From an uncultured Gammaproteobacteria bacterium (GTDB lineage: Bacteria > Patescibacteriota > Microgenomatia > Woykebacterales > RBG-16-39-9b), in assembly GCA_964643435.1 (NCBI GenBank), contig CAZXPY010000003.1:20344-84343 (forward strand): a DNA stretch of 64,000 nt, read 5' to 3'. Position 1 is the first letter of the stretch, and each line of letters opens with the position of its first letter. The notes beneath the pieces are model-generated. The model was not told the origin of the DNA, ran no database searches, and was given only the letters and a program-made list of their open reading frames with translations. Below are positions 3,300 to 55,281 of the stretch, one piece after another. A program made the translations under genes and the position numbers.

Positions 3300-4328
3300 T
3301 CAGGCACTAAAAGTAATTTCCGAACCACATTGAGCTAAACCCTCTAAAAGGAACCGGGAATTAAAAGCAATTGAAAGCGGCTCTTTTCCTTCAATCTTGG
3401 AGGAGAGTTTACTACTGCCTGACCCAAGCTGAGCGGTTTGGGCGTTGATTTCTATGGTTTTGGCGGCCGGGTCAAGTTTTAATTTGACAACACTACCAAT
3501 ATCTTTAGCAAAAATTGCGGCGATTCTTAGGGACCTTAATAGTTCTTCTACCGGTAACTGGGCTTTAATGGCGCTTTCTTTAGGAATAATTCTTTCATAT
3601 TCTGGGTAAGAACCATCGATTAAGCGGCAGGAGACTACAACATTGGTACTTTTAAAAATAGTTTGGTTTTTTGACTCATCAAGAAAGAGGGAAATATCTC
3701 CTTCTTCGTTTTCCGCAATCCGCGCCACTTCTAATAATGTTCTGGCTGGTAAGATGAACTCTTGGGTGGTTGCTTTGCTTTTAAACTTGAATGTGTTTTT
3801 TGACAATCGGTAGCCGTCAGTAGCTACTAGAATTAGCTTGTCTGGTTTTTGCGAGAATAAAACGCCGTTTAAAACTGGCCTTCCTTCGTCTGCCGAAGCG
3901 GCAAAAACAACTTTATTTAGGTTCTGGGCGAATTCACTAGAATCTATGGTTAAAATTTCGCCGGTCTCTGGTTTAGGTATCTCCGGAAACTCGGAAGCGG
4001 AAATTGTTGCTAGGCTCGCGTGGAACTGTTCTGCCTCAACTTCCAAAGTTTCGTCTTTTAGAGTTACTTCGATTGGTAGCGGCGGTAGCGCGTTAATAAA
4101 ATCGCTAAATATTTTCGCCGGGACGGTCGTATTTCCTACTTCCGATACTTTTGCAGGTATATAGGCGGTGATCGAGGTTTCCAGATTAGTACTACTTAAA
4201 TACAAACCTTCTTTTCTAGCTTCGATTAAAATATTCGAAAGGACCGGCAAGGTAGGTTTTTGGGATACGGCTTTATTAACAAGCGACAATCCTTTGTTTA
4301 GATTTTCTTGAGATACGGTTACCACCAT
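3300..4328 (-). CDS. dnaN: DNA polymerase III beta sliding clamp
   Basis: Three-domain beta-clamp-like sequence; classic dnaA-dnaN-recF order. Confidence 0.85.
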   Translation of the reverse strand: MVVTVSQENLNKGLSLVNKAVSQKPTLPVLSNILIEARKEGLYLSSTNLETSITAYIPAKVSEVGNTTVPAKIFSDFINALPPLPIEVTLKDETLEVEAEQFHASLATISASEFPEIPKPETGEILTIDSSEFAQNLNKVVFAASADEGRPVLNGVLFSQKPDKLILVATDGYRLSKNTFKFKSKATTQEFILPARTLLEVARIAENEEGDISLFLDESKNQTIFKSTNVVVSCRLIDGSYPEYERIIPKESAIKAQLPVEELLRSLRIAAIFAKDIGSVVKLKLDPAAKTIEINAQTAQLGSGSSKLSSKIEGKEPLSIAFNSRFLLEGLAQCGSEITFSA

Positions 4329-10040: not shown

Positions 10041-10445
10041 CTATTTTTGATTTGGATTATTTTGCCTATTCAAACCATTATTTATTAGCTCTTGCAGTTG
10101 TTTAGTAGGTTCGTAATTTGGATCTAATTCTAATGTTTTAGTAATCGCTACTTTGGCCTTTTGGAGATCATTAAGCTGGTAATAAATAGAAGAGAGTTTT
10201 AACCAAGCGTCTCGCCAATTAGGTTCCCTTTCGGTTTCTTTCTCCCAAAAAACCACCTCTTCTGTTAATTTTTTGTGAGTTTCAAGAGCTAAAGTTATCT
10301 TATCAACCTCCGTTTTGATTTTTCCATTCCTTCGGAAAACTTCTTCCGACAAACTGATAAAAAGCAAGAAGGTAAGAGTAATCAATACAAGATAGCTCTT
10401 TTTGGTAAATTTGAAGAAATTTTTAAATTTTAATCTCGAGGCCAT
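10041..10445 (-). CDS. membrane-anchored TPR-repeat protein
   Basis: N-terminal transmembrane segment and TPR-like repeats (KLSSIYYQLNDLQKAKVAITKTLELDP). Confidence 0.45.
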   Translation of the reverse strand: MASRLKFKNFFKFTKKSYLVLITLTFLLFISLSEEVFRRNGKIKTEVDKITLALETHKKLTEEVVFWEKETEREPNWRDAWLKLSSIYYQLNDLQKAKVAITKTLELDPNYEPTKQLQELINNGLNRQNNPNQK

Positions 10446-12553
10446 TTAGTGAGCATTATTGGGCCGCTATTGCCTTTAAGCCGTTGCCAAAGTTCTTCAG
10501 TAATAAAAGGCATAAAAGGATGCAAAGTAATTAAACAAGTTTCCAAAACCTGCTCTAAGGTGGCTTGAGCATGGGAACGGCGCTTCTTTGCCTTTTCAAT
10601 ATAAATATCAGCAAATTTGTGCCAAACGAAGTCGTAAAGAGAGTGAGCGGCTTGACCGAAACGGTAAGCCTCAATATCAGTAGTGACTTTCTTTCTGGTT
10701 TTTTCCAGCTCCTCCAAAATCCACTTATCCTCCGCATTTTTAATTTTGATCCTTCGACTCCGCTCAGGATCAACCCTGAGCTGGTCGAATGGGTTGAATT
10801 TTGCGTCTGAAAGACCAAGCTTTGCTTCAGTTTTAATTCCAGATTCACTCGAAAGAATGAATCTGGCGATATTCCAAAGCTTGTTAGCGAAATTTCTGGC
10901 CGCAATAATCGCGTCTTCACTAAATTTAATATCTTGCGTACCGGTATTTATGTACATTAACCCAAACCTGGTTGCGTCAGCCCCGTACTTTTCGATTAAA
11001 TCAATTGGGTCTATCCCAGTTCCCAGAGACTTACTCATTCTTTTACCCTCAATATTAAAAATAGTCGGGTGGACGTAAACTTTACTAAAAGGTTCTTTAC
11101 CCATAAACTCTAAACCAGAAAAAACCAGGCGACTTACCCACAAATTAATAATATCCCTAGCCGTGGAGAGAACTGTAGTTGGATAAAAATATTTAAGGTC
11201 GGCGGTTTTTTTAGGCCAACCAAAAACCGCAAATGACCAAAGAGCTGACGAGAACCAAGTATCTAAAACGTCCTCTTCCCCAGGCAAAGGAATTTTATGT
11301 CCCCACCAAATTTGTCTTGAGATATTCCAATCTTTGACATTTTTTAGCCAATTTAAATAAACTTTAGCCCACCTTTTGGGGATAAAGGTTACAGCACCCT
11401 CCTTAACGGCGTTTGCGGCGAGAAGTGCTAATTTATCCATTTTCAAAAACCACTGCTTGGAAACTAAAGGCTCAACTAGGCTGTTACAGCGGTAACAGGT
11501 AGGCATAGAAATTTGATAATTTTCTTCCTTTTCTAAGAAAGCCCCTTTTTTTAGATCTTCTAGAATCTTTTCTCTAGCCTTTACCTTGTCTAAATTAGCG
11601 TAAGGCCCACCTTCTTTGGTGATTTTCCCTTCCTCGTTAATTACCCTTATTAAGGGTAATTGATGGTGGCTGGCAATTTCAAAATCAATTGGGTCGTGGG
11701 CCGGAGTAACTTTGACAGCCCCACTACCAAAGTCTTTATTGACTAGAGAATCAGTTACAATTGGTATTTCTCGACCAAGTAGCGGTAAAATAGCCAATTT
11801 GCCCGCCAAAGAGGCATAGCGGCTGTCCTTGTTGTGGACAGCGACGGCGGTATCACCGAGCATAGTTTCGGGTCGGCTGGTGGCTACAGTTACAAAACCA
11901 CCGTCCTTAATAAGATATTTAATAAAATAAAGTTTGCCTTTAGTTTCAACATGGATAATTTCTAAATCGGAAAGGGAAGTAGCACAGCGGGAACACCAAT
12001 TAATAATTCGCTCACCTTTGTAAACCCACCCCTTCTTATAATAATGGAGAAAAGCGGTTTCGACTGCCTTGACGTAAGCGGGATCCATTGTATAGATAAG
12101 GCGACTCCAATCAGCACTAATGCCGAGTTTCTTAAACTGATCGAGAATCTTAAATCCGTATTTTTCCCGCCACTCCTTTACTTTTTCAATAAATTGCTCT
12201 TTTCCCAAGTCAAAACGCGTTTTACCTCTCTTTCCTAATTCTTTTTCCACTACCACTTGAGTAGCAATTCCAGCGTGATCTGTTCCGGGGACCCAAAGCG
12301 CAACTTCTCCTAGCATTCTTTTGTAGCGGATTAAAACATCCTGAATTGTTAAATTCAGGGCATGTCCCATATGCAAAGAACCAGTAATATTTGGCGGCGG
12401 CATAACCATAACAAAAGGCCTTTTGTTCTTAACTATTTTTACTGAAAATAAGCCCTTTTTTACCCAATCAGAGTAAATCCTTTCCTCAACTTTCTTAGGA
12501 TCGTAAACTTTATCCATTGAGCCAATTATATACGTATCGGTTATTTTAGGCAA
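10430..12553 (-). CDS. valS: valyl-tRNA synthetase (short form)
   Basis: Class I HMGH (SLHMGHALN) and KMSKS motifs; ValRS-like N-terminus. Confidence 0.85.
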   Translation of the reverse strand: MPKITDTYIIGSMDKVYDPKKVEERIYSDWVKKGLFSVKIVKNKRPFVMVMPPPNITGSLHMGHALNLTIQDVLIRYKRMLGEVALWVPGTDHAGIATQVVVEKELGKRGKTRFDLGKEQFIEKVKEWREKYGFKILDQFKKLGISADWSRLIYTMDPAYVKAVETAFLHYYKKGWVYKGERIINWCSRCATSLSDLEIIHVETKGKLYFIKYLIKDGGFVTVATSRPETMLGDTAVAVHNKDSRYASLAGKLAILPLLGREIPIVTDSLVNKDFGSGAVKVTPAHDPIDFEIASHHQLPLIRVINEEGKITKEGGPYANLDKVKAREKILEDLKKGAFLEKEENYQISMPTCYRCNSLVEPLVSKQWFLKMDKLALLAANAVKEGAVTFIPKRWAKVYLNWLKNVKDWNISRQIWWGHKIPLPGEEDVLDTWFSSALWSFAVFGWPKKTADLKYFYPTTVLSTARDIINLWVSRLVFSGLEFMGKEPFSKVYVHPTIFNIEGKRMSKSLGTGIDPIDLIEKYGADATRFGLMYINTGTQDIKFSEDAIIAARNFANKLWNIARFILSSESGIKTEAKLGLSDAKFNPFDQLRVDPERSRRIKIKNAEDKWILEELEKTRKKVTTDIEAYRFGQAAHSLYDFVWHKFADIYIEKAKKRRSHAQATLEQVLETCLITLHPFMPFITEELWQRLKGNSGPIMLTKWPRD

Positions 12554-12575: not shown

Positions 12576-13556
12576 TTAAAAATGAAGTCCGGGGTCGGCT
12601 TTTATTTTTTGCCAGGCAACTGGTTTGTAGTTAAAATAAGCCGCTGCCGCAATCATCGCCGCGTTATCGATGGACAGACCAGGACCAGCGGCTACCACCT
12701 TGCTAGTAAAAGAGCTTTGCATTTTTTCGCGCAACCGCTGGTTTGCCGCAACCCCGCCAGCTAAGACAACCTGCGTGACCTTGAATTTGTTGGCTGCTTT
12801 GGAGGTTTTTGTAACTAGAACATCAACTATGGCTTCCTGAATACTTGCCGCCGCATCAGGAATGACTAGAGATTCTTTATTTATCGTTTTAATACTATTG
12901 GTAACGGCGGTTTTTAAGCCGGAAAAAGAAAAATCAAAATCGCCAGAGGCTATCAAGGGTCGAGGAAAATTAAAAGCTTTTGGGTTACCGCTCTTGGCAG
13001 ACCTTTCAATCTCTGGACCTCCGGGATAGGGAAGTCCTAGAAGCCGAGCAGTCTTATCAAAGGCTTCACCAGCCGCGTCGTCTCGGGTACCGCCTAGCCA
13101 AAGATAATTATTGTGGTTTTTTACTAAAAGCAAATCAGTGTGAGCCCCACTGACCACTAAAGCTAGGTAAGGAAATTTCGGGGCGGTTTGTTCTAGATAA
13201 CAACCGTAAATGTGGCCAATTAAATGATTTACTGGTACAATTGGTTTTTTCCAAGCAAAACTCAATGTTTTGGCGGCTTCAACACCAACTAATAATGATC
13301 CAATTAAACCAGGACCGACGGTTACCGCAACAGCATCAATACTGCTTTTGGAAAGTCTGGCGAGACGAAACGTTTCTTCTAAAACCGGGATTATTTCTTT
13401 AACTTGTTCTCGAGCTGCAGTTTCGGGAATTATGCCACCAGTTTTGGAATGCAACTGGGCAGAAGAAGACACAACATTGGATAAAATTTTTGTTCCATCG
13501 AGAACTACGGCAGCCGCAGTTTCATCACAACTAGTCTCAATACCCAAGATTCTCAT
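12576..13556 (-). CDS. tsaD: tRNA N6-adenosine threonylcarbamoyltransferase TsaD (Kae1/Gcp)
   Basis: MRILGIETSCDETAAAVV N-terminus and Kae1-family metal-binding motifs. Confidence 0.85.
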   Translation of the reverse strand: MRILGIETSCDETAAAVVLDGTKILSNVVSSSAQLHSKTGGIIPETAAREQVKEIIPVLEETFRLARLSKSSIDAVAVTVGPGLIGSLLVGVEAAKTLSFAWKKPIVPVNHLIGHIYGCYLEQTAPKFPYLALVVSGAHTDLLLVKNHNNYLWLGGTRDDAAGEAFDKTARLLGLPYPGGPEIERSAKSGNPKAFNFPRPLIASGDFDFSFSGLKTAVTNSIKTINKESLVIPDAAASIQEAIVDVLVTKTSKAANKFKVTQVVLAGGVAANQRLREKMQSSFTSKVVAAGPGLSIDNAAMIAAAAYFNYKPVAWQKIKADPGLHF

Positions 13557-13586
13557 CTAAATTAATTGTACTTTATCCTGTAGTAC

Positions 13587-13615
13587 TTGACAATGCTTGA
13601 CTGCTTTGCTATAAT
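13587..13615 (+). promoter_or_regulatory. consensus sigma70 promoter TTGACA-17-TATAAT
   Basis: Exact consensus hexamers with a 17-nt spacer, firing into the GC-rich non-coding locus. Confidence 0.6.
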
Positions 13616-13833
13616 GCCTATAGTTTTCAAAAGGCTGAAACGGTCGAGCCGGGAAATTCCGCCTGGATATTGGGTCTTTACCCAAAGAACCTCTAAAGGA
13701 AGCCCAGCGAGGCTCCTGCGGGGGTCGTAATAGATCCAGAGTGCCCAGCAAAACCGTGTAAGCGTATCGGAGAGGATCTGGCCGGGTGGTCACGCAGTCT
13801 GCGCATAAAAGCGCGGAAAGGAGAAGGCCATAT

Positions 13834-13926
13834 ATGGCTGTTCCAAGTAACCGGTCGTTTTTGGACAAGTTCAACGTCTTCGACCCGGTCGCCACCTCCG
13901 TCGGCGTGACCATCACCCCGATCTGA
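13834..13926 (+). CDS. possible 30-aa ORF MAVPSNRSFLDKFNVFDPVATSVGVTITPI inside the candidate non-coding RNA
   Basis: ATG preceded by AAAGGAGAAGG; it may be a spurious ORF within a structured RNA. Confidence 0.15.
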   Translation: MAVPSNRSFLDKFNVFDPVATSVGVTITPI

Positions 13927-13992
13927 GGCGACCATCATCGTCTGGCCAGGTAACCTGATGGCGTAAAGCCCCAGGATCCTGGTCAAGACAAG

Positions 13993-14066
13993 CCCGCTGG
14001 GAGGAAAATCGCTACTCGAGATGATCAGAGCGAATACCCTTCTCCCAGCGGGCCTCTTACTTTTAT
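13993..14066 (+). terminator. intrinsic terminator: long stem CCCGCUGGGAG/CUCCCAGCGGG plus CCUCUUACUUUUAUAG tail
   Basis: Inverted repeat followed by a U-rich tract, plus orientation; the tail matches the terminator tail at 37396..37409. Confidence 0.5.
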
Positions 14067-14074
14067 AGACACTT

Positions 14075-14584
14075 TTAAACCGGCTGCTTTGGCGGCATCA
14101 AAAATTTCTTAGACTCTAAATCCAGGTCAACAAAACTATCCGCCTCACTAATTAATTTAGCACTGGTACTTTTACCAAAACCAATCACTTCAACCCGGTG
14201 TCCCTGGTTTCGTAAATACTCTAGGGCCGGTACGTAGTCTCCGTCTCCAGAAACTAAAACCATAACGTCTAGTTTTGGTCCTAGCCGGATCATATCGATC
14301 ACAATGCCTACGTCCCAGTCACCTTTTTTTACTCCGCCGGGAAAAATTTGAATATCTTTAGTTTTTACTTCAAAACCGCTTTTCTCTAAAGCTTCAAAAA
14401 AAGTTTGCTCTTCGGGTATATCGGCCTTAATTACATAAGCGAGTGCCCTTATTAACTGACGAGAATTAACCCCGGTTTCTAAAATTTTTGAAAAATTAAC
14501 CCTAGCGCCGTAAATATTGCGGGCACTATAATATAAATTTTGAACATCAACAAAAACACCGATCCGCTGGTTTATATTTCTCAA
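14075..14584 (-). CDS. NYN/LabA-like (DUF88) nuclease-domain protein
   Basis: VFVDVQNLYY N-terminus and the VLVSGDGDYVPALEYLRNQGHRVEVIGF motif typical of LabA/NYN PIN-like domains. Confidence 0.65.
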   Translation of the reverse strand: MRNINQRIGVFVDVQNLYYSARNIYGARVNFSKILETGVNSRQLIRALAYVIKADIPEEQTFFEALEKSGFEVKTKDIQIFPGGVKKGDWDVGIVIDMIRLGPKLDVMVLVSGDGDYVPALEYLRNQGHRVEVIGFGKSTSAKLISEADSFVDLDLESKKFLMPPKQPV

Positions 14585-16455
14585 ATACCTTCACCTCCTG
14601 TTCCAATTAAATAAATTGCTCGCCAAGGTTGATAATGAGTAACAAAATCTTCTTTTGAAACTAGGTTACCCTCTTTATAAACTTTTCTTGAAAAAATAGT
14701 ATCGGCTCCCCAGGCTTCAAAATCAACTTGCTTTTTTGTACCGGCCGGTAGGCTTACATCTTCCTGGAAAGAAGGAGACGGTGGGGGAACTAAGTTCTTA
14801 ACAATTGGTTTGCTGATCTCAATAACCCGATTGTCAGCCGTACCGTATATCTCAAAAGCTAAATAGGATTTGGCCAAATCAATTCTTCTTTGAATCAACA
14901 AATAATTCGGAGTGTCGTTTTTAAATTTTAAATCTGAAGTGGGAAAATAAACTGAAGCATCAATTCCTGGAGGGGAATCAAGTTCATAATAGCCAACTCG
15001 GTAGGCATGGGGGTGGCGTTCAACAACCGGCAAACCAGCGTTTAAAATAGCCCTAAAAAGGGTGGTTGAAACCTGACAAATTCCGCCACCGACCCCAATT
15101 TGGGTGCGGCCATTTATTATAATATAAGCTTCTCTAAAACCAGTGGTGGCTTCAACGTCACCAATCGCTTTGTGCATCGAAAAAGTTTCCCCAGGCGCAA
15201 TTAAAACGCCGTTTAATCTTTCAGAACCAAGCCTTATATTGTGAACCCTTCCTTCCCCGCTACCACCAAATTTAGATTCTCCTGTACCGAGAAGTTCTTT
15301 TATACCTAGGTTATTGACATTTTCAATTGTGACAGCTGCTTTAGTAATTTTTACTGGTAAATCAAGCGTTTTCTCCTCACCACTAAGAGAACTACTGATT
15401 AAGTTTACTAATAAATCTTCGTCAAGCTCTCGACCTTCCTGATGGGGTACAAAATTGGCGACTCTTCCTCCCTGAAATTCAAAACGGGCGTTAATAGAGG
15501 GTTGATCGATTTCTTGGGTGATTCTGGCCACATAATCTTTTACCGCGGCCGTATTTATCTGGACAAGCGGGTTTGATTTGGGAGAGGTTAACGAATAAAT
15601 TTTCTGTATTTGTATTGTGTAATTGGCAGTTTTTATTTTGAAAGCAGAGGAAGAGTCTCCAGAGTCTAGACTAATAAACTGCGCTAATTGCTTTGTGTCT
15701 AATTTCCAAGTCTTATTTCCCAATCGCAACGTTAATTTAGTGTTAAAAATCTTTTTGATGTCTTCTTGGGCAGCAATAACATCGGCTTCAGAGACAGTTG
15801 GTTCAACGATTCGAAGCTGACCAACCACTAAGGAAGAAAAATTTTTACTAGATTTTAATAAGGCGTTTTTTAAACCGGTTTTATCCAATTTTACGCCATT
15901 TTCCCCACCTTTAACGAGAAAATCTCTTCCATTGAAGCTAAAAGTAGCGTCTTCTGGAGCAACTTCAAACTGGGAACTTAAGTTATCTAAAAAAGAGTTA
16001 ATTTTTGTCTCGTCAATATCCAAAGAAACCCCGACCCCTTTTTTACCAAAAAAACCTTCTAAGATCTGCTTAGAAGATAGAAAAATATTTGGATCACGAC
16101 CGATCCTAAAGGCCTCTTTAATTGTATCTTTGGTATTAAAATCTATACCGGCGTCTTTGGGTTTAAAATTTTCTTGGTAATTGTCTATTTTTAAAGTAAA
16201 CCCTTCTTTTTTAAAACTAGTTATTTTTTGAACTACTCTTTCTTCAGCTTGCTCTAAATTTTGAGATCCCAGATTTATATTAGCGACAAAAATATTTGGA
16301 TAAATCCTTTCCCTAAAAACGTAAAAAAGGAGAAAAGTGAGGCACAAGAGGGCAAATAGAACAACGTAAAAAGATGTTAGAAACTGACCCTGTAGGTAAA
16401 AACCAGTGGATAAGTCTTTATTAATTGGTATCTGGTTTCTAGTTTTCTTAGCCAT
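14581..16455 (-). CDS. VanW-family protein with an N-terminal membrane anchor
   Basis: C-terminal VanW-like region (GGGICQVSTTLFRAILNAGLPVVERHPHAYRVGYY); N-terminal transmembrane helix. Confidence 0.65.
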   Translation of the reverse strand: MAKKTRNQIPINKDLSTGFYLQGQFLTSFYVVLFALLCLTFLLFYVFRERIYPNIFVANINLGSQNLEQAEERVVQKITSFKKEGFTLKIDNYQENFKPKDAGIDFNTKDTIKEAFRIGRDPNIFLSSKQILEGFFGKKGVGVSLDIDETKINSFLDNLSSQFEVAPEDATFSFNGRDFLVKGGENGVKLDKTGLKNALLKSSKNFSSLVVGQLRIVEPTVSEADVIAAQEDIKKIFNTKLTLRLGNKTWKLDTKQLAQFISLDSGDSSSAFKIKTANYTIQIQKIYSLTSPKSNPLVQINTAAVKDYVARITQEIDQPSINARFEFQGGRVANFVPHQEGRELDEDLLVNLISSSLSGEEKTLDLPVKITKAAVTIENVNNLGIKELLGTGESKFGGSGEGRVHNIRLGSERLNGVLIAPGETFSMHKAIGDVEATTGFREAYIIINGRTQIGVGGGICQVSTTLFRAILNAGLPVVERHPHAYRVGYYELDSPPGIDASVYFPTSDLKFKNDTPNYLLIQRRIDLAKSYLAFEIYGTADNRVIEISKPIVKNLVPPPSPSFQEDVSLPAGTKKQVDFEAWGADTIFSRKVYKEGNLVSKEDFVTHYQPWRAIYLIGTGGEGI

Positions 16456-22233: not shown

Positions 22234-22285
22234 GTTTTTAAGAAGATTTGGCCTGCCGGCCGAATCCGGCTTTGCCGGAGAAGGC

Positions 22286-22304
22286 TGGAGGCGTCGAGCG
22301 GATT
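22286..22304 (-). repeat. 19-nt duplicate of the tRNA-Cys 3' end (AATCCGCTCGACGCCTCCA), lying 18 nt beyond the tRNA
   Basis: 18 of 19 positions match the tRNA-Cys T-arm 3' half plus acceptor 3' strand plus CCA. Confidence 0.55.
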
Positions 22305-22321
22305 CGCCCCGCACTGAAATT

Positions 22322-22395
22322 TGGAGGCGTGGAGCGGATTTGAACCGCTGTGAACGGTTTTGCAGACCGTTGTCTAACCACTCGACCACCACGCC
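22322..22395 (-). tRNA. tRNA-Cys (GCA)
   Basis: Cloverleaf folded by hand: acceptor GGCGUGG/CCACGCC, anticodon stem ACGGU/ACCGU, loop CUGCAAA, T-arm AGCGG-UUCAAAU-CCGCU, encoded CCA. Confidence 0.85.
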
Positions 22396-37025: not shown

Positions 37026-37047
37026 TCAATTTTATAACCTCTAGTAG

Positions 37048-37076
37048 TTGACAAAAGGATATAAATATGGTATAGT
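37048..37076 (+). promoter_or_regulatory. sigma70 promoter TTGACA-17-TATAGT (island cassette 1)
   Basis: Hexamers and spacer read directly. Confidence 0.55.
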
Positions 37077-37133
37077 AATTACATTAAATCCCCGCCTGGG
37101 GAATGGATTCATATTTTGGACAGGAGGTTCACA

Positions 37134-37298
37134 GTGTCTGGTCGGCAATTCGCGTCCTACGTGTACGGGAGCAACCGGCCCAAGAGTCAGCGGCCGTTCG
37201 AAGGTAGCGCACCACTGCGCAACCGCGACGCCCGCAACAGCCAGATCGTCAAGCCTAAGGAGGACAGCAAATCCTTCTGGGCGAAGGCCAACTGGTAG
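37134..37298 (+). CDS. small basic protein of unknown function (54 aa, GTG start, GGAGG Shine-Dalgarno), GC-rich
   Basis: GGAGG 6 nt upstream of the GTG; sequence MSGRQFASYVYGSNRPKSQRPFEGSAPLRNRDARNSQIVKPKEDSKSFWAKANW; followed by a terminator. Confidence 0.45.
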   Translation: MSGRQFASYVYGSNRPKSQRPFEGSAPLRNRDARNSQIVKPKEDSKSFWAKANW

Positions 37299-37356
37299 GA
37301 CCCGCCAACACCGCCGAAGAAATTCAAGGGAAAGTTTCGGCGGCAAGAATCCGTCT

Positions 37357-37409
37357 GAAGGGGTAGACGAAGCTCAATGCAACGCCTACCCCTTCCTCTT
37401 TACTTTTAC
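37357..37409 (+). terminator. intrinsic terminator GAAGGGGUAG...CUACCCCUUC plus CUCUUUACUUUUAC
   Basis: 10-bp stem and U-rich tail; the tail overlaps the -35 of the next cassette. Confidence 0.55.
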
Positions 37410-37426
37410 AACACAGCTGGTATAAT
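37399..37426 (+). promoter_or_regulatory. sigma70 promoter TTTACT-16-TATAAT (island cassette 2)
   Basis: Read directly. Confidence 0.45.
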
Positions 37427-37460
37427 CCGTCTCGGAATTGCTAATCAAAGGAGGGGATCC

Positions 37461-37919
37461 TTGCAGGTAGAGTACGAGACGAAAAAAGTCCCCAAGGATT
37501 ATAGGGGAGTGAGCGAGACGGCGACTCTTTTACAAGCAGTTTGCGATGTGCGGTTGTCCCCAAACTTTTACTACCCAGTAACGATTAATATTTTTGTAGA
37601 TGAAGAAACCGTAGAAACAAGAAACGTTGAGGTGACCCTACCTTATTATAACTTGGTGGGTAATCACTATATCTTGGTTAGGGACCAAAGAACCGCGGTT
37701 ATCAAGGCGGCATTGAAGAAAGACGAAGAAGCCTTCTTAGAAGCCTTCCAATCACCGGCGGCTGTTTCAGTACGCAAGCGGGGAAATCTCACCTGGCTTG
37801 TTTTTGCCCAAACAAACGGTAGCACCCCTAACGCCTCCCTCTTTCGCGGGGAAGCACTGGCAGGAGAGCGTGTAATCTGGAAAAACAAGATGCACGATCT
37901 CCGAATCACCAGTATTTAG
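37461..37919 (+). CDS. hypothetical protein (about 152 aa, TTG start, AAGGAGG Shine-Dalgarno), GC-rich; no recognisable family
   Basis: Shine-Dalgarno 7 nt upstream of the TTG; the ORF track extended it to an upstream in-frame start at 37377. Confidence 0.45.
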   Translation: MQVEYETKKVPKDYRGVSETATLLQAVCDVRLSPNFYYPVTINIFVDEETVETRNVEVTLPYYNLVGNHYILVRDQRTAVIKAALKKDEEAFLEAFQSPAAVSVRKRGNLTWLVFAQTNGSTPNASLFRGEALAGERVIWKNKMHDLRITSI

Positions 37920-37928
37920 ACTATGGGG

Positions 37929-37957
37929 TTGACAAAGCCTCGTAGTTATAGTATAAT
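37929..37957 (+). promoter_or_regulatory. consensus sigma70 promoter TTGACA-17-TATAAT (island cassette 3)
   Basis: Exact consensus hexamers. Confidence 0.6.
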
Positions 37958-38060
37958 AATCGACAACTAAGCTCAAAATAAGCCGCTGAAAGGAGAGTAG
38001 AAAGCGCGGCAAGAGCAAGTACACCTTATCCGTAAGTGCCTTGAAACTTTGGAGGTTACC

Positions 38061-38531
38061 TTGTCTCCAACACGGAGAATCCAAGATCAGCGTTTCGAGT
38101 GTAGCGTCGGGGTCGCGTCGTACTGCCTCAAATCCGCTCGTCTCGACGAGGACTTCAACATCAGGTCCCGCGACCAGGACATCCCGGCCCTCTGGGTCAA
38201 AACCAGCCGGGAAAGGGACGAGATGAGGGCGGAGGTGAAGGACCTGGTCGTCATCTGCGCTCCCTGCCGGGGATTCCTCATTCAGCGGTCCAAAGAGACC
38301 GGGAAGAAGATCGAGATGTCCCCCTTGAGGGATGTTCTCGCCCGCCGGGAGGATTCCGCCCGCCGCGAGGCCGACCGCGAGTCCACTAGAGCCGCTGCGA
38401 TCGCAAAGGCAGACGCCTTCCTGGACAAGCACGGGGAGCCGGCGGAACCTACAGCAGTCGCCGTCGCTCTCGAAGGGGCAGGGATCGACGCCGCCGGCAA
38501 GACTTTGGTCGAGGCCGGAGGCAAGAAGTAG
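38061..38531 (+). CDS. hypothetical protein (about 156 aa, TTG start, GGAGG Shine-Dalgarno), about 60% GC by hand count; charged with an Ala/Gly-rich tail
   Basis: GGAGG 5 nt upstream of the TTG; strong terminator downstream; no recognisable motif (there is a CAPC pair). Confidence 0.45.
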   Translation: MSPTRRIQDQRFECSVGVASYCLKSARLDEDFNIRSRDQDIPALWVKTSRERDEMRAEVKDLVVICAPCRGFLIQRSKETGKKIEMSPLRDVLARREDSARREADRESTRAAAIAKADAFLDKHGEPAEPTAVAVALEGAGIDAAGKTLVEAGGKK

Positions 38532-38547
38532 CCCCTGTCGTACCGAA

Positions 38548-38596
38548 GAGGACCTTGTTGATGTTCAACTCATCACCAAGGTCCTTTTTTATTTTT
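38548..38596 (+). terminator. intrinsic terminator AGGACCUUG...CAAGGUCCU plus UUUUUUAUUUUU
   Basis: 9-bp stem and a long U tract. Confidence 0.65.
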
Positions 38597-38666
38597 AAAA
38601 TTGCAAAAAAAGAGTATTAGTTTAATATACCGCATACCTTTGATGAGGTAATAATCCTATAGCCTG

Positions 38667-38753: not shown

Positions 38754-39746
38754 TTGGTCGAGAAATGCCTACACGGGGATGATCCTGACGATTGTTTAAT
38801 TTGTGATTTACCTAAATCACCTAAACTTTCAGATCTTGAGGAAGAAATTATTAGGGGCTTACATGGAGAAGCTGAAGGCGCACCCGAAAAAGTTCCTCTT
38901 GAGTACAGCGAACTTCCTTCTGGTGTTGCCTTAATCGTTGATCTGGACAATTTTATTGCCAGCGCCAAACCAAAAGGTCTAAGACTTTCGGGCAAGGTTT
39001 TAACTGAAAAAGCCCGAAGCTTTGGTAAAGTTTTGCACGCTCACGCCTATAGCGACTTTACCCAAGTTGGTCAAGATATCGTCAAAGACCTTTATATCAA
39101 CGGTATAAGAATGATTCATTGCCCAAAGTTGCCTGTGGCCACTGAAAGCGGTGGGACCGATCTTAAAGACACGGTCGATCCGGTCTTCATCGAAGGCGTC
39201 CACACCCTCTTGTTTGACGAGAGGGTTGGTACTTTCATCTTTGCCGCTGGGGACAGAGATTATCTGCCAGCCTTAAACACGGTTCGACAGCAGGGTCGAA
39301 AAACCGTTGTGTTGCTACCAGGTCACGCCCACAGTCTCTTAAGAGCAAGAGCGGACGAAGTAGTGGATATCTTTGGTCCGCTAACAGCGGAAATTGACGA
39401 ACTCCCGGGAAGGTTTCTCCGGCTTACCCTTCCCGATATGAGGGAAGCTCTCCTCGCTGATTCCGACACTGCTTTTACCGTGGAATTCGTCGCCGATGTC
39501 TTCAAAGCAATAAAGCCCTTTCTTTCGCAAGCGGCCGCACTTGGTTACTTACAAATCGAAACAATTGTTTTGGCGAAAAGACGGGAGTTTCGCCACCAAC
39601 TACTTGGCGGAGAGCTGGACATCAAAAAGGCTCTCCAAGCCCTAGTTGACGGCGGGGTAATTATCCAAAACACAAAAAGAAAGGAAGTAAAATATTACGT
39701 AGTTAATTTGGAACACCCTTTTACCATCTTGGCAGAAGAGATCTAA
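38754..39746 (+). CDS. NYN-domain nuclease with an N-terminal Cys cluster and a C-terminal OST-HTH/LOTUS-like domain (330 aa, TTG start)
   Basis: VALIVDLDNF and FAAGDRDYLPALNTVRQQGRKTVVL NYN motifs; CLHGDDPDDCLICD at the N-terminus; AGGAG 5 nt upstream of the start. Confidence 0.6.
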   Translation: MVEKCLHGDDPDDCLICDLPKSPKLSDLEEEIIRGLHGEAEGAPEKVPLEYSELPSGVALIVDLDNFIASAKPKGLRLSGKVLTEKARSFGKVLHAHAYSDFTQVGQDIVKDLYINGIRMIHCPKLPVATESGGTDLKDTVDPVFIEGVHTLLFDERVGTFIFAAGDRDYLPALNTVRQQGRKTVVLLPGHAHSLLRARADEVVDIFGPLTAEIDELPGRFLRLTLPDMREALLADSDTAFTVEFVADVFKAIKPFLSQAAALGYLQIETIVLAKRREFRHQLLGGELDIKKALQALVDGGVIIQNTKRKEVKYYVVNLEHPFTILAEEI

Positions 39747-52365: not shown

Positions 52366-54135
52366 TTGTTGATGGATAAAATTAGAAATTTTACTATTTT
52401 GGCTCATATTGATCACGGTAAGTCTACTCTTGCTGATAGATTTTTAGAAATTACCCAAACATTGCCAAAAGAAAAAATTGTAGAACAAACCTTAGATCGG
52501 CTCGATTTAGAGCGGGAAAGAGGGATTACTATAAAATTAACCCCAGTAACAATGGGTTGGAAGGGCTATACTTTAAATTTGATTGATACCCCAGGCCACG
52601 TAGATTTCACTTACGAAGTCTCCCGAGCTTTACGGGCGGTAGAGGGAGCAATTCTCCTAATCGACGCCACTACCGGCATTGCCGCCCAAACCTTAAGTAA
52701 TTATCGTCTTACCTTAGAAGCCAAACTAAAATTAATACCAGTTATTAATAAGATTGATCATCCTTTTGCTCAAACTGAAAGTTTGGTCGAGTCTTTGATA
52801 GAAGCCTTTAAGTTTGAGGAAGTAGAGATATTAAAAGTTTCCGCCAAAACTGGTCAAAACGTGGCTAATTTACTAGATAAAGTTATTAAGGTTGTTCCGG
52901 TACCTAGGGAAGGAGAAAAATCAGCTGCTTTAATTTTTGATTCGTTTTATGACCCATTTAAGGGTGTAGTGGCGTTTGTACGGGTCTTTGGCGGTTTTTT
53001 TAAGAGTGGGGATCGACTTAAACTAGTTGGTCAAGACTTCGAAGCAGATGCAGTTGAAGTTGGTATTTTCACCCCTGATCTTAGGCCTAAATTACAACTT
53101 AGTAGCGGTGAAATTGGTTACATTGCTACTGGCGTAAAGAACCCCGCCAAGGTTTTGGTTGGGGATACGATAGCTTTATTCACAGAAAAGAATCCCCAAA
53201 TTCTCCCCGGGTTTAGGAAGATTAAACCCCTAGTTTACGCTTCCTTTTATCCAGCAAATAATAATGATTTTCCACTCCTTTTCGAAGCCTTGCAAAAATT
53301 TAAATTAAATGATGCTTCATTATTTTTCGAACCAGAATCATCGGCAGCCCTAGGACTCGGTTTTAGATGTGGGTTTCTTGGATTACTTCATCTTGAGATA
53401 GTTCAAGAAAGACTGGAGCGAGAGTATAATTTGGATTTAGTCGCTTCATCACCAACAGTTAAATATTTGGTTGAATTAACTAGTGGTTCGGAAATCGAAA
53501 TCTCTAATCCCACTACGTTTCCACTGCCCTCTCAAATTAAAAAAATTAAAGAGCCAATTGTTAACGCAGAAATTGTTACACCATCCCAATATATTGGTGG
53601 GATACTGGAACTTATACAAAAGAAAAGAGGCAGGGTTAATAATTATAACTACGTGGCTGATCAGGTGATTATTGAAGCAAAGATTCCTTTATTCGAAGTT
53701 ATTGCTGATTTTTTTGATAAATTAAAATCAATATCGAGTGGTTTTGCTTCTTTTGATTACGATTTGGCTTCATGGGAAGAGGTTGAAGCGGTGAAATTGG
53801 ATGTGCTAGTAGCCGGCAGCAAAATTGACGCTTTAAGCCAGATTATTGTTAAGAGAAATGCCCAAATTGTTGGTAGAAGATTGGTAGAAAAACTTAAAGG
53901 ATTAATACCAAGACAACAATTTGAGGTTTCGTTGCAAGCGGCGGTCGGCGGAAAAATTTTAGCAAGAGCAGATATTCCATCATACAGGAAAGACGTTACT
54001 GCCAAACTATATGGGGGCGATAGAACTAGAAAAGATAAGCTTCTGCAGAAACAAAAGAAAGGCAAAAAAAGAATGAAGATGGTCGGACGAGTCGAAATTC
54101 CCCAAGAAGCCTTCCTATTAGCTCTAAAAATCTGA
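52366..54135 (+). CDS. lepA: elongation factor 4 (LepA)
   Basis: IRNFTILAHIDHGKSTLADR G1 motif and the LepA C-terminal domain. Confidence 0.9.
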   Translation: MLMDKIRNFTILAHIDHGKSTLADRFLEITQTLPKEKIVEQTLDRLDLERERGITIKLTPVTMGWKGYTLNLIDTPGHVDFTYEVSRALRAVEGAILLIDATTGIAAQTLSNYRLTLEAKLKLIPVINKIDHPFAQTESLVESLIEAFKFEEVEILKVSAKTGQNVANLLDKVIKVVPVPREGEKSAALIFDSFYDPFKGVVAFVRVFGGFFKSGDRLKLVGQDFEADAVEVGIFTPDLRPKLQLSSGEIGYIATGVKNPAKVLVGDTIALFTEKNPQILPGFRKIKPLVYASFYPANNNDFPLLFEALQKFKLNDASLFFEPESSAALGLGFRCGFLGLLHLEIVQERLEREYNLDLVASSPTVKYLVELTSGSEIEISNPTTFPLPSQIKKIKEPIVNAEIVTPSQYIGGILELIQKKRGRVNNYNYVADQVIIEAKIPLFEVIADFFDKLKSISSGFASFDYDLASWEEVEAVKLDVLVAGSKIDALSQIIVKRNAQIVGRRLVEKLKGLIPRQQFEVSLQAAVGGKILARADIPSYRKDVTAKLYGGDRTRKDKLLQKQKKGKKRMKMVGRVEIPQEAFLLALKI

Positions 54136-54185: not shown

Positions 54186-54214
54186 TTGACATAAACCAAT
54201 GATGGTGGTATAAT
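54186..54214 (+). promoter_or_regulatory. consensus sigma70 promoter TTGACA-17-TATAAT
   Basis: Exact consensus hexamers; fires into the non-coding GC-rich segment. Confidence 0.6.
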
Positions 54215-54220
54215 TATTTT

Positions 54221-54495
54221 GGTTCAGTCTGACCTGGCTGGTGCGAGTAGGCAATGACTAGTCTTTGGAAGTAGTCAACCACCGCAGGGGCATAAGCTCT
54301 CGTCAGATACGGCTGAATCCCGGGTGTCCGCTGCAGGGAAAAGGGTTTGGCTTTTTTGCCCGGCCGAAAGACCTCCCCTGTTCTAACCAGCCAGCACCCA
54401 CAGGGCGCTATTAAGCTACAATGCACTAGATTATTGTAGCTTAACGCAATCTCCAACCAGGTTTTTCGATCTTTCGGGAGACCTGGTTTCCCTTT
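54221..54495 (+). ncRNA. candidate structured non-coding RNA of about 270 nt between lepA and hrcA; identity unresolved (6S, SRP and RNase P considered)
   Basis: No ORF. Nested long-range helices CUGGCUGG/CCAGCCAG and CAGGGG/CCCCUG, plus local hairpins. Promoter and terminator are both plus-oriented. Confidence 0.35.
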
Positions 54496-54499
54496 TATT
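54455..54499 (+). terminator. intrinsic terminator AACCAGGU...ACCUGGUU plus UCCCUUUUAUU
   Basis: 8-bp stem and a U-rich tail, immediately before the hrcA promoter. Confidence 0.5.
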
Positions 54500-54513
54500 A
54501 AAGATTCTCGGTC

Positions 54514-54552: not shown

Positions 54553-55281
54553 ATGGAACTTGCATCAAGACAGCAGGAGCTACTGCGAGCAATAATCGAA
54601 GAATATATTGAAACCGCAGAACCGGTTGGTTCAGAGACGATTGTTAGAAAGTACAACCTCGGTGTTTCCCCAGCAACAATCCGCAACGAAATGGTGGAAT
54701 TGACTGATTTGGGATTTCTTAAAAAGCCTTACGCGAGTGCCGGACGTATTCCTTCTCCCTCTGCTTTAAAATTTTATATCCAAACTTTGATGAAGGAACA
54801 CGAACTTCCTGTGAAGGACGAGGTTTCAATTAAAGAATCTCTTTGGGATAATCGCTTTGAGTTCGATAAACTCTTGAAAGAAGCCTCTAAACAATTGTCA
54901 GAGAAAACTGGTACCTTGGCAATAGCTAATACCGAAGGAGGAGATACCTATTATTACGGAGCCGCTAGTATTCTAGATATGCCTGAATTTATTGATATTG
55001 ATCTAACTAAGAGTATCCTCTCCCTTTTGGACGATAATACTCTTTTGAGCGAAATTTTTAGTCGAGTAATTGGGGATAACGATGTCCATATTTTAATTGG
55101 TGATGATTTAGAAATTGAAAATTTACTTCCTTGTTCGTTTGTTTTTTCAAATTTTGGAGCCGGAAGAAGATTTGCGGGAACTGTAGGAGTAATCGGACCA
55201 GCAAGAATGCATTATCCAAGAGTGGTACCGACAGTACGTTATTTTGGTTACTTATTGAATGAAGCTGCAGCGAGTTGGTAG
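54553..55281 (+). CDS. hrcA: heat-inducible transcription repressor HrcA (short form)
   Basis: LLRAIIEEYIETAEPVGSETI winged-helix N-terminus; followed by grpE-dnaK. Confidence 0.8.
   Translation: MELASRQQELLRAIIEEYIETAEPVGSETIVRKYNLGVSPATIRNEMVELTDLGFLKKPYASAGRIPSPSALKFYIQTLMKEHELPVKDEVSIKESLWDNRFEFDKLLKEASKQLSEKTGTLAIANTEGGDTYYYGAASILDMPEFIDIDLTKSILSLLDDNTLLSEIFSRVIGDNDVHILIGDDLEIENLLPCSFVFSNFGAGRRFAGTVGVIGPARMHYPRVVPTVRYFGYLLNEAAASW

Follow-up and report, generated by a model that had tools for sequence, protein, structure and literature searches.

A GC-rich structured RNA unit between tsaD and an NYN-domain gene as a candidate mini-mRNA of a CPR-type bacterium

The DNA analysed here is a 64-kb stretch (hereafter the window; all coordinates are positions in it, and its GC content is 38%) from a bacterium of the candidate phyla radiation (CPR) type, and our subject is one intergenic RNA unit in it, located between the tsaD gene and a gene encoding an NYN/LabA-like protein (Table 1). 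The genes around the RNA unit are valS, tsaD, NYN, VanW and galU. An initial annotation of the locus had described an exact promoter consensus (TTGACA-17-TATAAT), a GC-rich, hairpin-dense segment on the plus strand, a long-stem intrinsic terminator, a 30-codon open reading frame (ORF) with a Shine-Dalgarno (SD) sequence and an NYN/LabA-like gene adjoining on the opposite strand, and every one of these features was recovered by the present analysis. That annotation regarded the locus as non-coding, and as either a divergent housekeeping RNA or an uncharacterised structured RNA.

The promoter of the RNA unit matches the sigma-70 consensus at 12 of 12 positions, carries a TG before the -10 box and is the top promoter-like site within 13000-14700; the predicted transcription start site (TSS) lies at ~13622. 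On the minus strand lies a divergent promoter-like site that may serve as the promoter of tsaD; its -35 box and that of the RNA promoter overlap. Over ~13625-14070, the GC content ranges from 0.53 to 0.57 when taken in steps of 200 nt and peaks at 0.61 in steps of 150 nt, compared with 0.38 for the window. The 14-bp terminator stem is formed by GCCCGCUGGGAGGA and UCUCCCAGCGGGC, followed by CUCUUACUUUUAU, and the terminator adjoins the NYN stop codon. It was missed by a consensus terminator scanner because its loop exceeds 8 nt, although it is part of the minimum free energy (MFE) structure. Two minus-strand ORFs over the RNA unit (119 aa and 97 aa) have no Pfam match and are absent from the protein collection. 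No second copy of the RNA unit, as a repeat or miniature inverted-repeat transposable element would have left, was found within the window, where the unit is single-copy, and two conserved RNA blocks had no match in viral contigs.

Table 1. Features of the RNA unit and its neighbours. A, B and C are alleles of three sister lineages, A being that of the window; helices are numbered as in the consensus structure. UTR, untranslated region.
Feature	Position	Strand	Remarks
valS	10430-12553	-	next gene after tsaD; tsaD-valS synteny also in relatives
tsaD	12576-13556	-	PF00814, E 6e-89; divergent neighbour
Promoter-like site	13565-13593	-	TTGTCA, 17-nt spacer, TACAAT; score 10/12; divergent
Sigma-70-type promoter	13587-13615	+	TTGACA (13587-13592), 17-nt spacer, TATAAT (13610-13615), TGnTATAAT
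Predicted primary transcript	13622-14066	+	~445 nt, 55% GC; limits given by promoter and terminator
5' domain	13634-13763	+	long-range helix enclosing a variable multi-hairpin insert; RNAalifold helices 2-3
Conserved UTR linker	13753-13789	+	ACCGUGUAAGCGUAUCGGAGAGGAUCUGGCCGGGUGG; 36/37 nt identical in A, B and C
Hairpin UCUGCGC-loop-GCGCGGA	13798-13817	+	helix 10; just 5' of the ribosome-binding site
Ribosome-binding site	13815-13836	+	GGAAAGGAG at 13815-23, 10 nt, AUG
Short ORF	13834-13926	+	30 codons, MAVPSNRSFLDKFNVFDPVATSVGVTITPI; sole SD-preceded plus-strand ORF
Hairpin inside the ORF	13850-13889	+	ACCGGUCG / CGACCCGGU; helix 11
Three-tier 3' UTR hairpin	13943-13985	+	UGGCCAGG..CCUG..GGC-loop-GCC..CAGG..CCUGGUCA; helices 13-14
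Intrinsic terminator	13992-14066	+	14-bp outer stem and inner hairpin 13992-14053; U-rich tail 14054-14066
NYN/LabA-like protein	14075-14584	-	169 aa; PF01936, E 1.3e-35; convergent neighbour

The predicted RNA folds more stably than its composition would lead one to expect. The MFE of the plus strand over 13625-14075 is -185.5 kcal/mol, compared with -148.9 +/- 7.0 for dinucleotide shuffles (z = -5.25), and none of 100 shuffles folded as well; the minus strand over the unit gave z = -3.7. Both autonomy from promoter to terminator and folding beyond the expectation from composition, as befits a structured mini-mRNA, were thus observed.

Comparative loci (given as L numbers) were contigs carrying NYN homologues, of which 7642 were found, a large number of them under names of Patescibacteria/CPR lineages (Woykebacteria and Saccharimonadales, for example); a TsaD search of genome contigs gave only relatives of at most 53% identity, without a similar intergenic RNA. 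The unit is carried by three sister lineages as allele A (the window), allele B and allele C, in tsaD-NYN gaps of 518, 634 and 480 nt, respectively. These alleles were also encountered in the data sets JGI 3300002502, 3300025317 and 3300025323 and ENA ERZ28563591/ERZ28563625. A fourth allele, L085 (NYN protein 91% identical), is partial, its contig beginning just 3' of the SD. Among the three sister lineages the proportion of synonymous differences (pS) in NYN, TsaD and VanW is 0.19-0.31 and the non-synonymous divergence (dN) 0-0.06; with such pS values in flanking genes, A, B and C are not strains of one clone.

The A/B/C RNA alignment begins roughly one base upstream of the predicted TSS. 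Of its columns, 57.9% are invariant, against 73.6% for 4-fold degenerate sites. The invariant columns are clustered: five invariant runs of at least 17 nt (lengths 17-30 nt) were found where 0.67 were expected at 73.6% 4-fold invariance (P = 6e-4), and the longest, of 30 nt, falls in the UTR linker (P = 0.011). The invariant blocks comprise the promoter, which is the same in all three alleles, the first 24 nt of the alignment, the linker, part of the 3'-UTR hairpin and both terminator arms. The region of the SD and AUG (GAAAGGAG..AUAUG) is also conserved in A, B and C, without a long invariant run because allele B has substitutions there. The variable parts are the hairpin cluster inside the 5' domain and the ORF body, with segments changing faster than 4-fold sites. 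These patterns indicate that the non-coding parts of the unit are under purifying selection. The short ORF (sORF) of B was also observed to be nearer to that of L085 than to those of A and C (nucleotide identity 66% for B-L085 vs 61% and 59%), though the flanking genes of B are nearest to those of A and C, and B and L085 share the N-terminus M.V..FR.[FY]S[LI]; this suggests that alleles may have been exchanged at the locus.

A consensus structure was computed by RNAalifold from the three alleles, and 94.7% of its cells are paired across the three lineages, compared with 38-46% in controls with slid partners. The covariation in relatives by which the initial annotation proposed to judge the RNA was present to a limited extent: five compensatory pairs occur, compared with 2.3 +/- 1.2 in shuffles, 26 of 500 of which reach five, so that the support from three sequences is consistent and modest. 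In the long-range 5' helix, 13634-13653 (GGCUGAAACGGUCGAGCCGGG) pairs with 13744-13763 (CCCAGCAAAACCGUGUAAGC); both arms fall in invariant blocks, and the insert that they enclose is replaced outright in allele C. The adjoining linker includes an SD-like GGAGAGGAUC, and helix 10 keeps a GCGC/GCGC core in all three alleles with differing loops. In allele B, the helix inside the ORF has undergone a single compensatory change, from C-G to G-C, besides two wobble changes. The 3' UTR hairpin is 100% paired in A, B and C, with invariant runs of 18 and 12 nt, and is replaced by other sequence in L085. In the terminator, all 14 pairs of the outer stem (helix 15) are invariant in the three lineages, and helix 16 has two compensatory pairs in allele B and keeps its pairing in L085 as well. 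The accessibility of the ribosome-binding site is only mildly above the transcript average. Given its autonomy, its strong structure, the selection on its non-coding parts and the lack of an Rfam family, the description of the unit as an uncharacterised structured RNA holds.

At 70-80% NYN identity, the slot between NYN and tsaD carries one to three units in L081, L082/L095, L099, L101, L102 and L182, with tandem paralogues in L099 and L102; in L098, L100, L103, L185 and L187 the unit is absent and NYN is directly followed by tsaD. All slot units are convergent with NYN (the window, L081, L082, L099, L101, L102 and L182), and each possesses a consensus promoter, GC-rich hairpins and a GCCCG...CGGGC-type terminator. 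Searches with the RNA by nhmmer and blastn against 190 loci recovered the sister alleles and the promoter only. Promoter homology was seen at least in L082/L095 and L101, where the nhmmer matches are confined to the promoter, and the promoter is the sole part of the unit seen by nhmmer in 79%-identity relatives. The transcribed sequences of the distant slot units are unrelated to that of the window and to each other, and an alignment of the long ORF-less units of L081 and L182 revealed no homology beyond the promoter. Compared in this way, the RNA unit appears as a lineage-specific element with quick turnover. A separate observation concerns unit 1 of L101 (locus ~3400-3810, minus strand), which is long and contains a relic ORF, MILNRSVGVAVNG, without an SD; the first 15 nt of this ORF nearly match the start of the L102 sORF MILNRSGPSF, which suggests that some 'non-coding' slot units may be decayed copies of sORF units.

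Evidence that the unit carries a coding sequence comes first from base composition. The ORF list also includes a 46-aa form of the 30-codon ORF, extended to a GTG start, and a 47-aa ORF whose TTG start lies inside the promoter. The GC content of the ORF at the three codon positions (GC1/2/3) is 0.48/0.45/0.83, compared with a GC3 of 0.23-0.38 in the long genes of the window outside a GC-rich island at 37-38.6 kb. In sliding windows, GC3 stays flat over the 5' UTR and attains 0.85-1.0 only inside the ORF. The same bias marks the sORFs with an SD in L082, L085, L099, L101 and L102 (pooled GC1/2/3 0.57/0.46/0.80, chi-square p = 1e-14), and in seven of eight slot sORFs, from five lineages, the GC3 excess is larger than that of every same-length control window from the UTRs of the same transcript. 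The start signals are likewise maintained: SD and ATG are kept in A, B and C, the partial L085 keeps the ATG (CATATG start region), and the sORFs of L082, L099, L101 and L102 have AGGAGG-type SDs 5-10 nt upstream. The A/C indel within the ORF is 3 nt and in frame, and the L085 frame remains open as far as the same TGA. The N-terminal residues N-R-S, a motif defined post hoc, occur in four lineages and are encoded by AAC/AAT, CGG/CGA/AGG and TCG/TCC/AGT, and the switches between codon families for Arg and Ser point to the protein level. These codon-level patterns make present or very recent translation of the ORF the most likely reading. The RNA unit is probably not purely non-coding, and its initial description as non-coding is doubtful in view of the periodicity of the ORF and its conserved start signals.

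Our favoured reading, to which we assign a probability of about 0.5, is that the locus is a lineage-specific structured mini-mRNA, or dual-function-sRNA-like gene (sRNA, small RNA), of a small-genome bacterium. An extended -10 consensus promoter would drive a ~445-nt GC-rich RNA that ends at the intrinsic terminator and is built in three layers, namely constant non-coding 5' and 3' domains, a canonical ribosome-binding site and the 30-codon ORF. The G+C-rich hairpins and the terminator would probably make this presumably abundant RNA long-lived. Ribosomes would load at GGAAAGGAG/AUG, with access to the start codon probably set by the conserved UTR elements, and translation or decay might be controlled, or a protein bound, by the 5' helix, the linker and the 3' hairpin, all of them conserved. 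The product would be a fast-changing peptide of ~30 aa with a semi-conserved N-terminus (N-R-S) and a freely varying tail. If selection for G+C pairing is absorbed at the wobble positions, both the high GC3 and the scarcity of third-position change would follow. A bolder version, which we consider distinctly doubtful, is that the NYN-tsaD slot hosts an unrecognised class of 'GC-clamped', hyper-stable mini-mRNAs that encode micropeptides with an N-R-S handle and a diversifying tail, with alleles exchanged between lineages; if it were true, the exchanged allele types would fit diversifying selection, imposed for example by hosts, competitors or the adjacent RNase.

Several observations weigh against translation and favour a purely non-coding structured sRNA, in which the SD-like and AUG elements would be structural or protein-binding motifs and the ORF incidental or a relic. 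Differences between A and C are distributed as 7/8/4 over codon positions 1/2/3; of the codon changes, 11 are non-synonymous and 2 synonymous, and BLOSUM scores are alike in all three frames. On these figures, the peptide body is not under purifying selection. The third-position variation that the initial annotation had named as the sign of a protein-coding pattern was accordingly not seen, presumably because the wobble positions are held at G/C and not because a coding signature is absent. In allele B, the commonest among the contigs read, the ATG frame is cut to 18 codons, and the hairpin internal to the ORF is kept via a compensatory pair. The identical stretches of the ORF are hairpin arms, so constraint at the RNA level explains them too, and the conserved blocks lie mostly in the UTRs. 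Peptide hidden Markov models from one lineage did not significantly retrieve the peptides of other lineages, and no peptide homologue was found in Pfam, NCBIfam or an exact-sequence look-up, by profile search of 5.8 billion proteins or by phmmer against 1.84 billion representatives. Convincing sORFs are lacking in L081, L182, unit 1 of L101 and unit 0 of L102, and an ORF of ~30 codons would be near chance expectation at 57-60% GC. A purely non-coding sRNA does not account for a GC3 periodicity that is confined to the ORF and repeated in seven of eight sORFs, for the strong, correctly spaced SDs of every sORF unit or for the survival of N-R-S through codon-family switches. Nor was a base-pairing target found: the duplex energies of four conserved blocks with 49 translation-initiation regions of the window were no better than those of shuffles. 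We regard this alternative as possible, though on the unlikely side.

The truncated frame of allele B was also examined in its own right. Its junction has a perfect slippery heptamer, A_AAU_UUC (of the form X_XXY_YYZ), followed by a hairpin, and a frame resembling the C-terminal part continues at -1. A putative -1 frameshift would yield a 27-aa peptide, MTVRRFRWYSINFRHVDVLIGAGIALT, colinear with the L085 peptide. The chance of a slippery heptamer within 18 codons is ~0.07, so the frameshift is only a lead. The allele B sORF was read in L086, and is also present in L090-L092, L094, L172, L174, L175 and L178.

The unit could instead be a functionless remnant of foreign GC-rich DNA, either mobile-element cargo or a pseudogene, left between NYN and tsaD. 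Its GC content of 0.55 against a host value of 0.38, its patchy distribution among relatives (missing from the five loci in which tsaD directly follows NYN), its orphan peptide and the presence of further GC3-rich orphan ORFs at 37134-38531 of the window would all fit such an origin. A decaying remnant would not be expected to show invariant runs far above the neutral expectation, or to retain a perfect promoter, ribosome-binding site and terminator in all alleles, and the high GC3 persists across lineages that have diverged in place. With neither a repeat copy in the window nor a match in viral contigs, we consider a foreign remnant improbable.

It is very unlikely that the locus encodes a small-peptide system, that is, a type I toxin mRNA or the precursor of a ribosomally synthesised and post-translationally modified peptide (RiPP) or of a pheromone, made up of an N-terminal handle followed by a variable tail. 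The highly structured small mRNA with long UTRs, the tandem paralogues in L099 and L102, the conserved N-terminus with a variable C-terminus, and allele types that do not track the flanking genes are what such a system would show. As read from its sequence, however, the peptide lacks a hydrophobic stretch of 18-20 residues, and no antisense promoter was found inside the unit on the minus strand (13620-14070), so that neither the hydrophobic peptide nor the antisense RNA of a type I toxin-antitoxin pair was detected. No maturation, export or immunity genes are located nearby, and there is no match to an NCBIfam or Pfam precursor family.

Convergence with NYN in every unit-bearing lineage, together with a terminator that adjoins the NYN stop codon, would suit a regulator of NYN acting by convergent transcription or as an antisense RNA, with read-through silencing NYN. 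We consider this highly improbable, given that the strong, conserved terminator would halt the transcript ahead of NYN, that interference needs neither ~450 nt of conserved structure nor a ribosome-binding site, and that lineages without the unit conserve NYN equally well. For the last of these reasons, a functional link to the NYN RNase in general is possible but unsupported.

The search for known RNA families returned little. At Rfam gathering thresholds, a tRNA-Cys was the only match in the whole 64 kb; with all 4227 models, 13450-14200 gave three chance-level matches to unrelated families at E<=10, none of them to transfer-messenger RNA (tmRNA; RF00023 clan), RNase P RNA, 6S RNA or signal recognition particle (SRP) RNA, the families for which the initial annotation had recommended such a check. 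ARAGORN found the tRNA-Cys and no tmRNA in the window, and nothing relevant emerged in relatives from Rfam (six relatives) or ARAGORN. The tmRNA-like 5' end reported earlier is thus a resemblance only: no acceptor stem or T-arm of a tRNA-like domain was supported, and in place of a tag frame there is an ORF with GGAAAGGAG, 10 nt and AUG that ends ...TITPI (...AISPT and ...TSLT in other alleles) and not in Ala-Ala. Although a divergent housekeeping RNA might be suspected from the size and strong promoter of the unit, from its high GC content within an AT-rich genome and from a 5' end superficially like that of tmRNA, the unit can hardly be one, since it is recognisable by nhmmer in sister lineages only and is unrelated or missing at 70-80% NYN identity, which excludes such a role.

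Other GC-rich units were observed in the window. A second candidate RNA that runs from promoter to terminator lies at 54186-54505 (+), between lepA (52366-54135) and hrcA (54553-55281). It has a 12/12 consensus promoter (54186-54214), a GC-rich part of ~190 nt (54222-54410) closed by CUGGCUGGUG/ACCAGCCAG and two more hairpins, the last of which (54455-54500) has a U-tail; its MFE z is -3.9, and it has no Rfam match at E<=10 and no convincing ORF. The GC-rich island at 37041-38600 (+; GC up to 0.70) holds two more consensus-promoter units. The promoter at 37048 precedes an SD-preceded 54-codon ORF (37134-37298, GC3 0.81; terminator ~37360-37410), an orphan whose sole database match is itself, and the promoter at 37929 (12/12) precedes an ORF of 160 aa (38049-38531, GC3 0.78) without a Pfam match. 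In architecture and wobble bias, these island units are like the ORF at 13834-13926. Directly 3' of the island, a second NYN/LabA-domain protein of 330 aa is encoded at 38754-39746 (+; PF01936, E 3e-12), so that both NYN genes of the window adjoin GC-rich orphan units with consensus promoters; this could be a coincidence or a functional link.

Downstream of the tRNA-Cys gene (22322-22395, -), the 3' end of the gene is repeated in part (GCGGGGCGAATCCGCTCGACGCCTCCA, ~22285-22312), and beyond this partial copy a GC-rich stretch extends to ~22076. The arrangement resembles the scar that an element would leave on integrating into the tRNA gene. In addition, the hexamer GCUGAA was noticed by eye near the 5' part of several consensus-promoter transcripts, at 13634-13640, 37985-37995 (the 37929 unit) and 54311-54317 (the 54186 RNA) of the window, and in L081 and unit 1 of L101.

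To our knowledge, almost nothing is known about small RNAs or micropeptides of CPR/Patescibacteria. A literature search returned nothing on such RNAs in CPR bacteria, none of the slot-unit peptides is present in a collection of 15 billion proteins, and such units escape gene callers altogether. Should its predicted expression be borne out, the unit would offer a concrete, testable structured mini-mRNA in this group, together with a simple rule for recognising more of them by a consensus promoter, G/C-locked wobble positions and a terminator. A promising 'tmRNA-like' locus has been shown not to be a housekeeping RNA, and the features that deserve attention are the G/C-locked wobble, a conserved promoter with quickly changing content behind it, and the invisibility to gene callers.

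Among known systems, tmRNA (ssrA) is comparable in being ~350-450 nt long, richly structured and equipped with a short internal frame that differs from lineage to lineage. It differs in having a tRNA-like acceptor and T-arm and a resume codon, where the unit has an SD and AUG; the peptide here ends in -TPI or -SPT instead of -LAA, and the unit lacks conservation across relatives. Type I toxin mRNAs such as hok, tisB and aapA1 are likewise small, very stable and heavily folded, with long UTRs and an ORF of ~30 codons, and are lineage-specific, intergenic and sometimes present in tandem copies; in contrast to them, the peptide here is not a hydrophobic membrane helix, and no antisense promoter or antitoxin RNA was detected. 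With the precursors of ribosomal peptides and pheromones, which combine a conserved leader with a hypervariable core, the unit shares a short ORF that is semi-conserved N-terminally and variable C-terminally, the occurrence of paralogues in tandem in certain genomes, and allele types that are not confined to one lineage. The conserved part here is only ~3-8 residues, however, with no processing, export or receptor genes nearby and no family match.

By its presumed mode of working, the unit comes nearest to dual-function sRNAs and to structured small mRNAs, type I toxin mRNAs among them, and it belongs to no described family. Dual-function sRNAs, such as RNAIII/delta-haemolysin of S. aureus, SR1/SR1P of B. 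subtilis and SgrS/SgrT of E. coli, differ from the unit, which is predicted from sequence, in that here no base-pairing target (49 window start regions) and no known regulator were found, and the peptide evolves much faster, with its wobble positions held at G/C in an AT-rich genome. The likeness lies in an autonomous promoter-to-terminator unit of 0.2-0.5 kb, in many stable hairpins, in an internal ORF of 26-43 codons with its own SD and in restriction to a narrow lineage. Small structured transcripts that enclose a short ORF are a known kind, and the lineage-restricted family described here is new.

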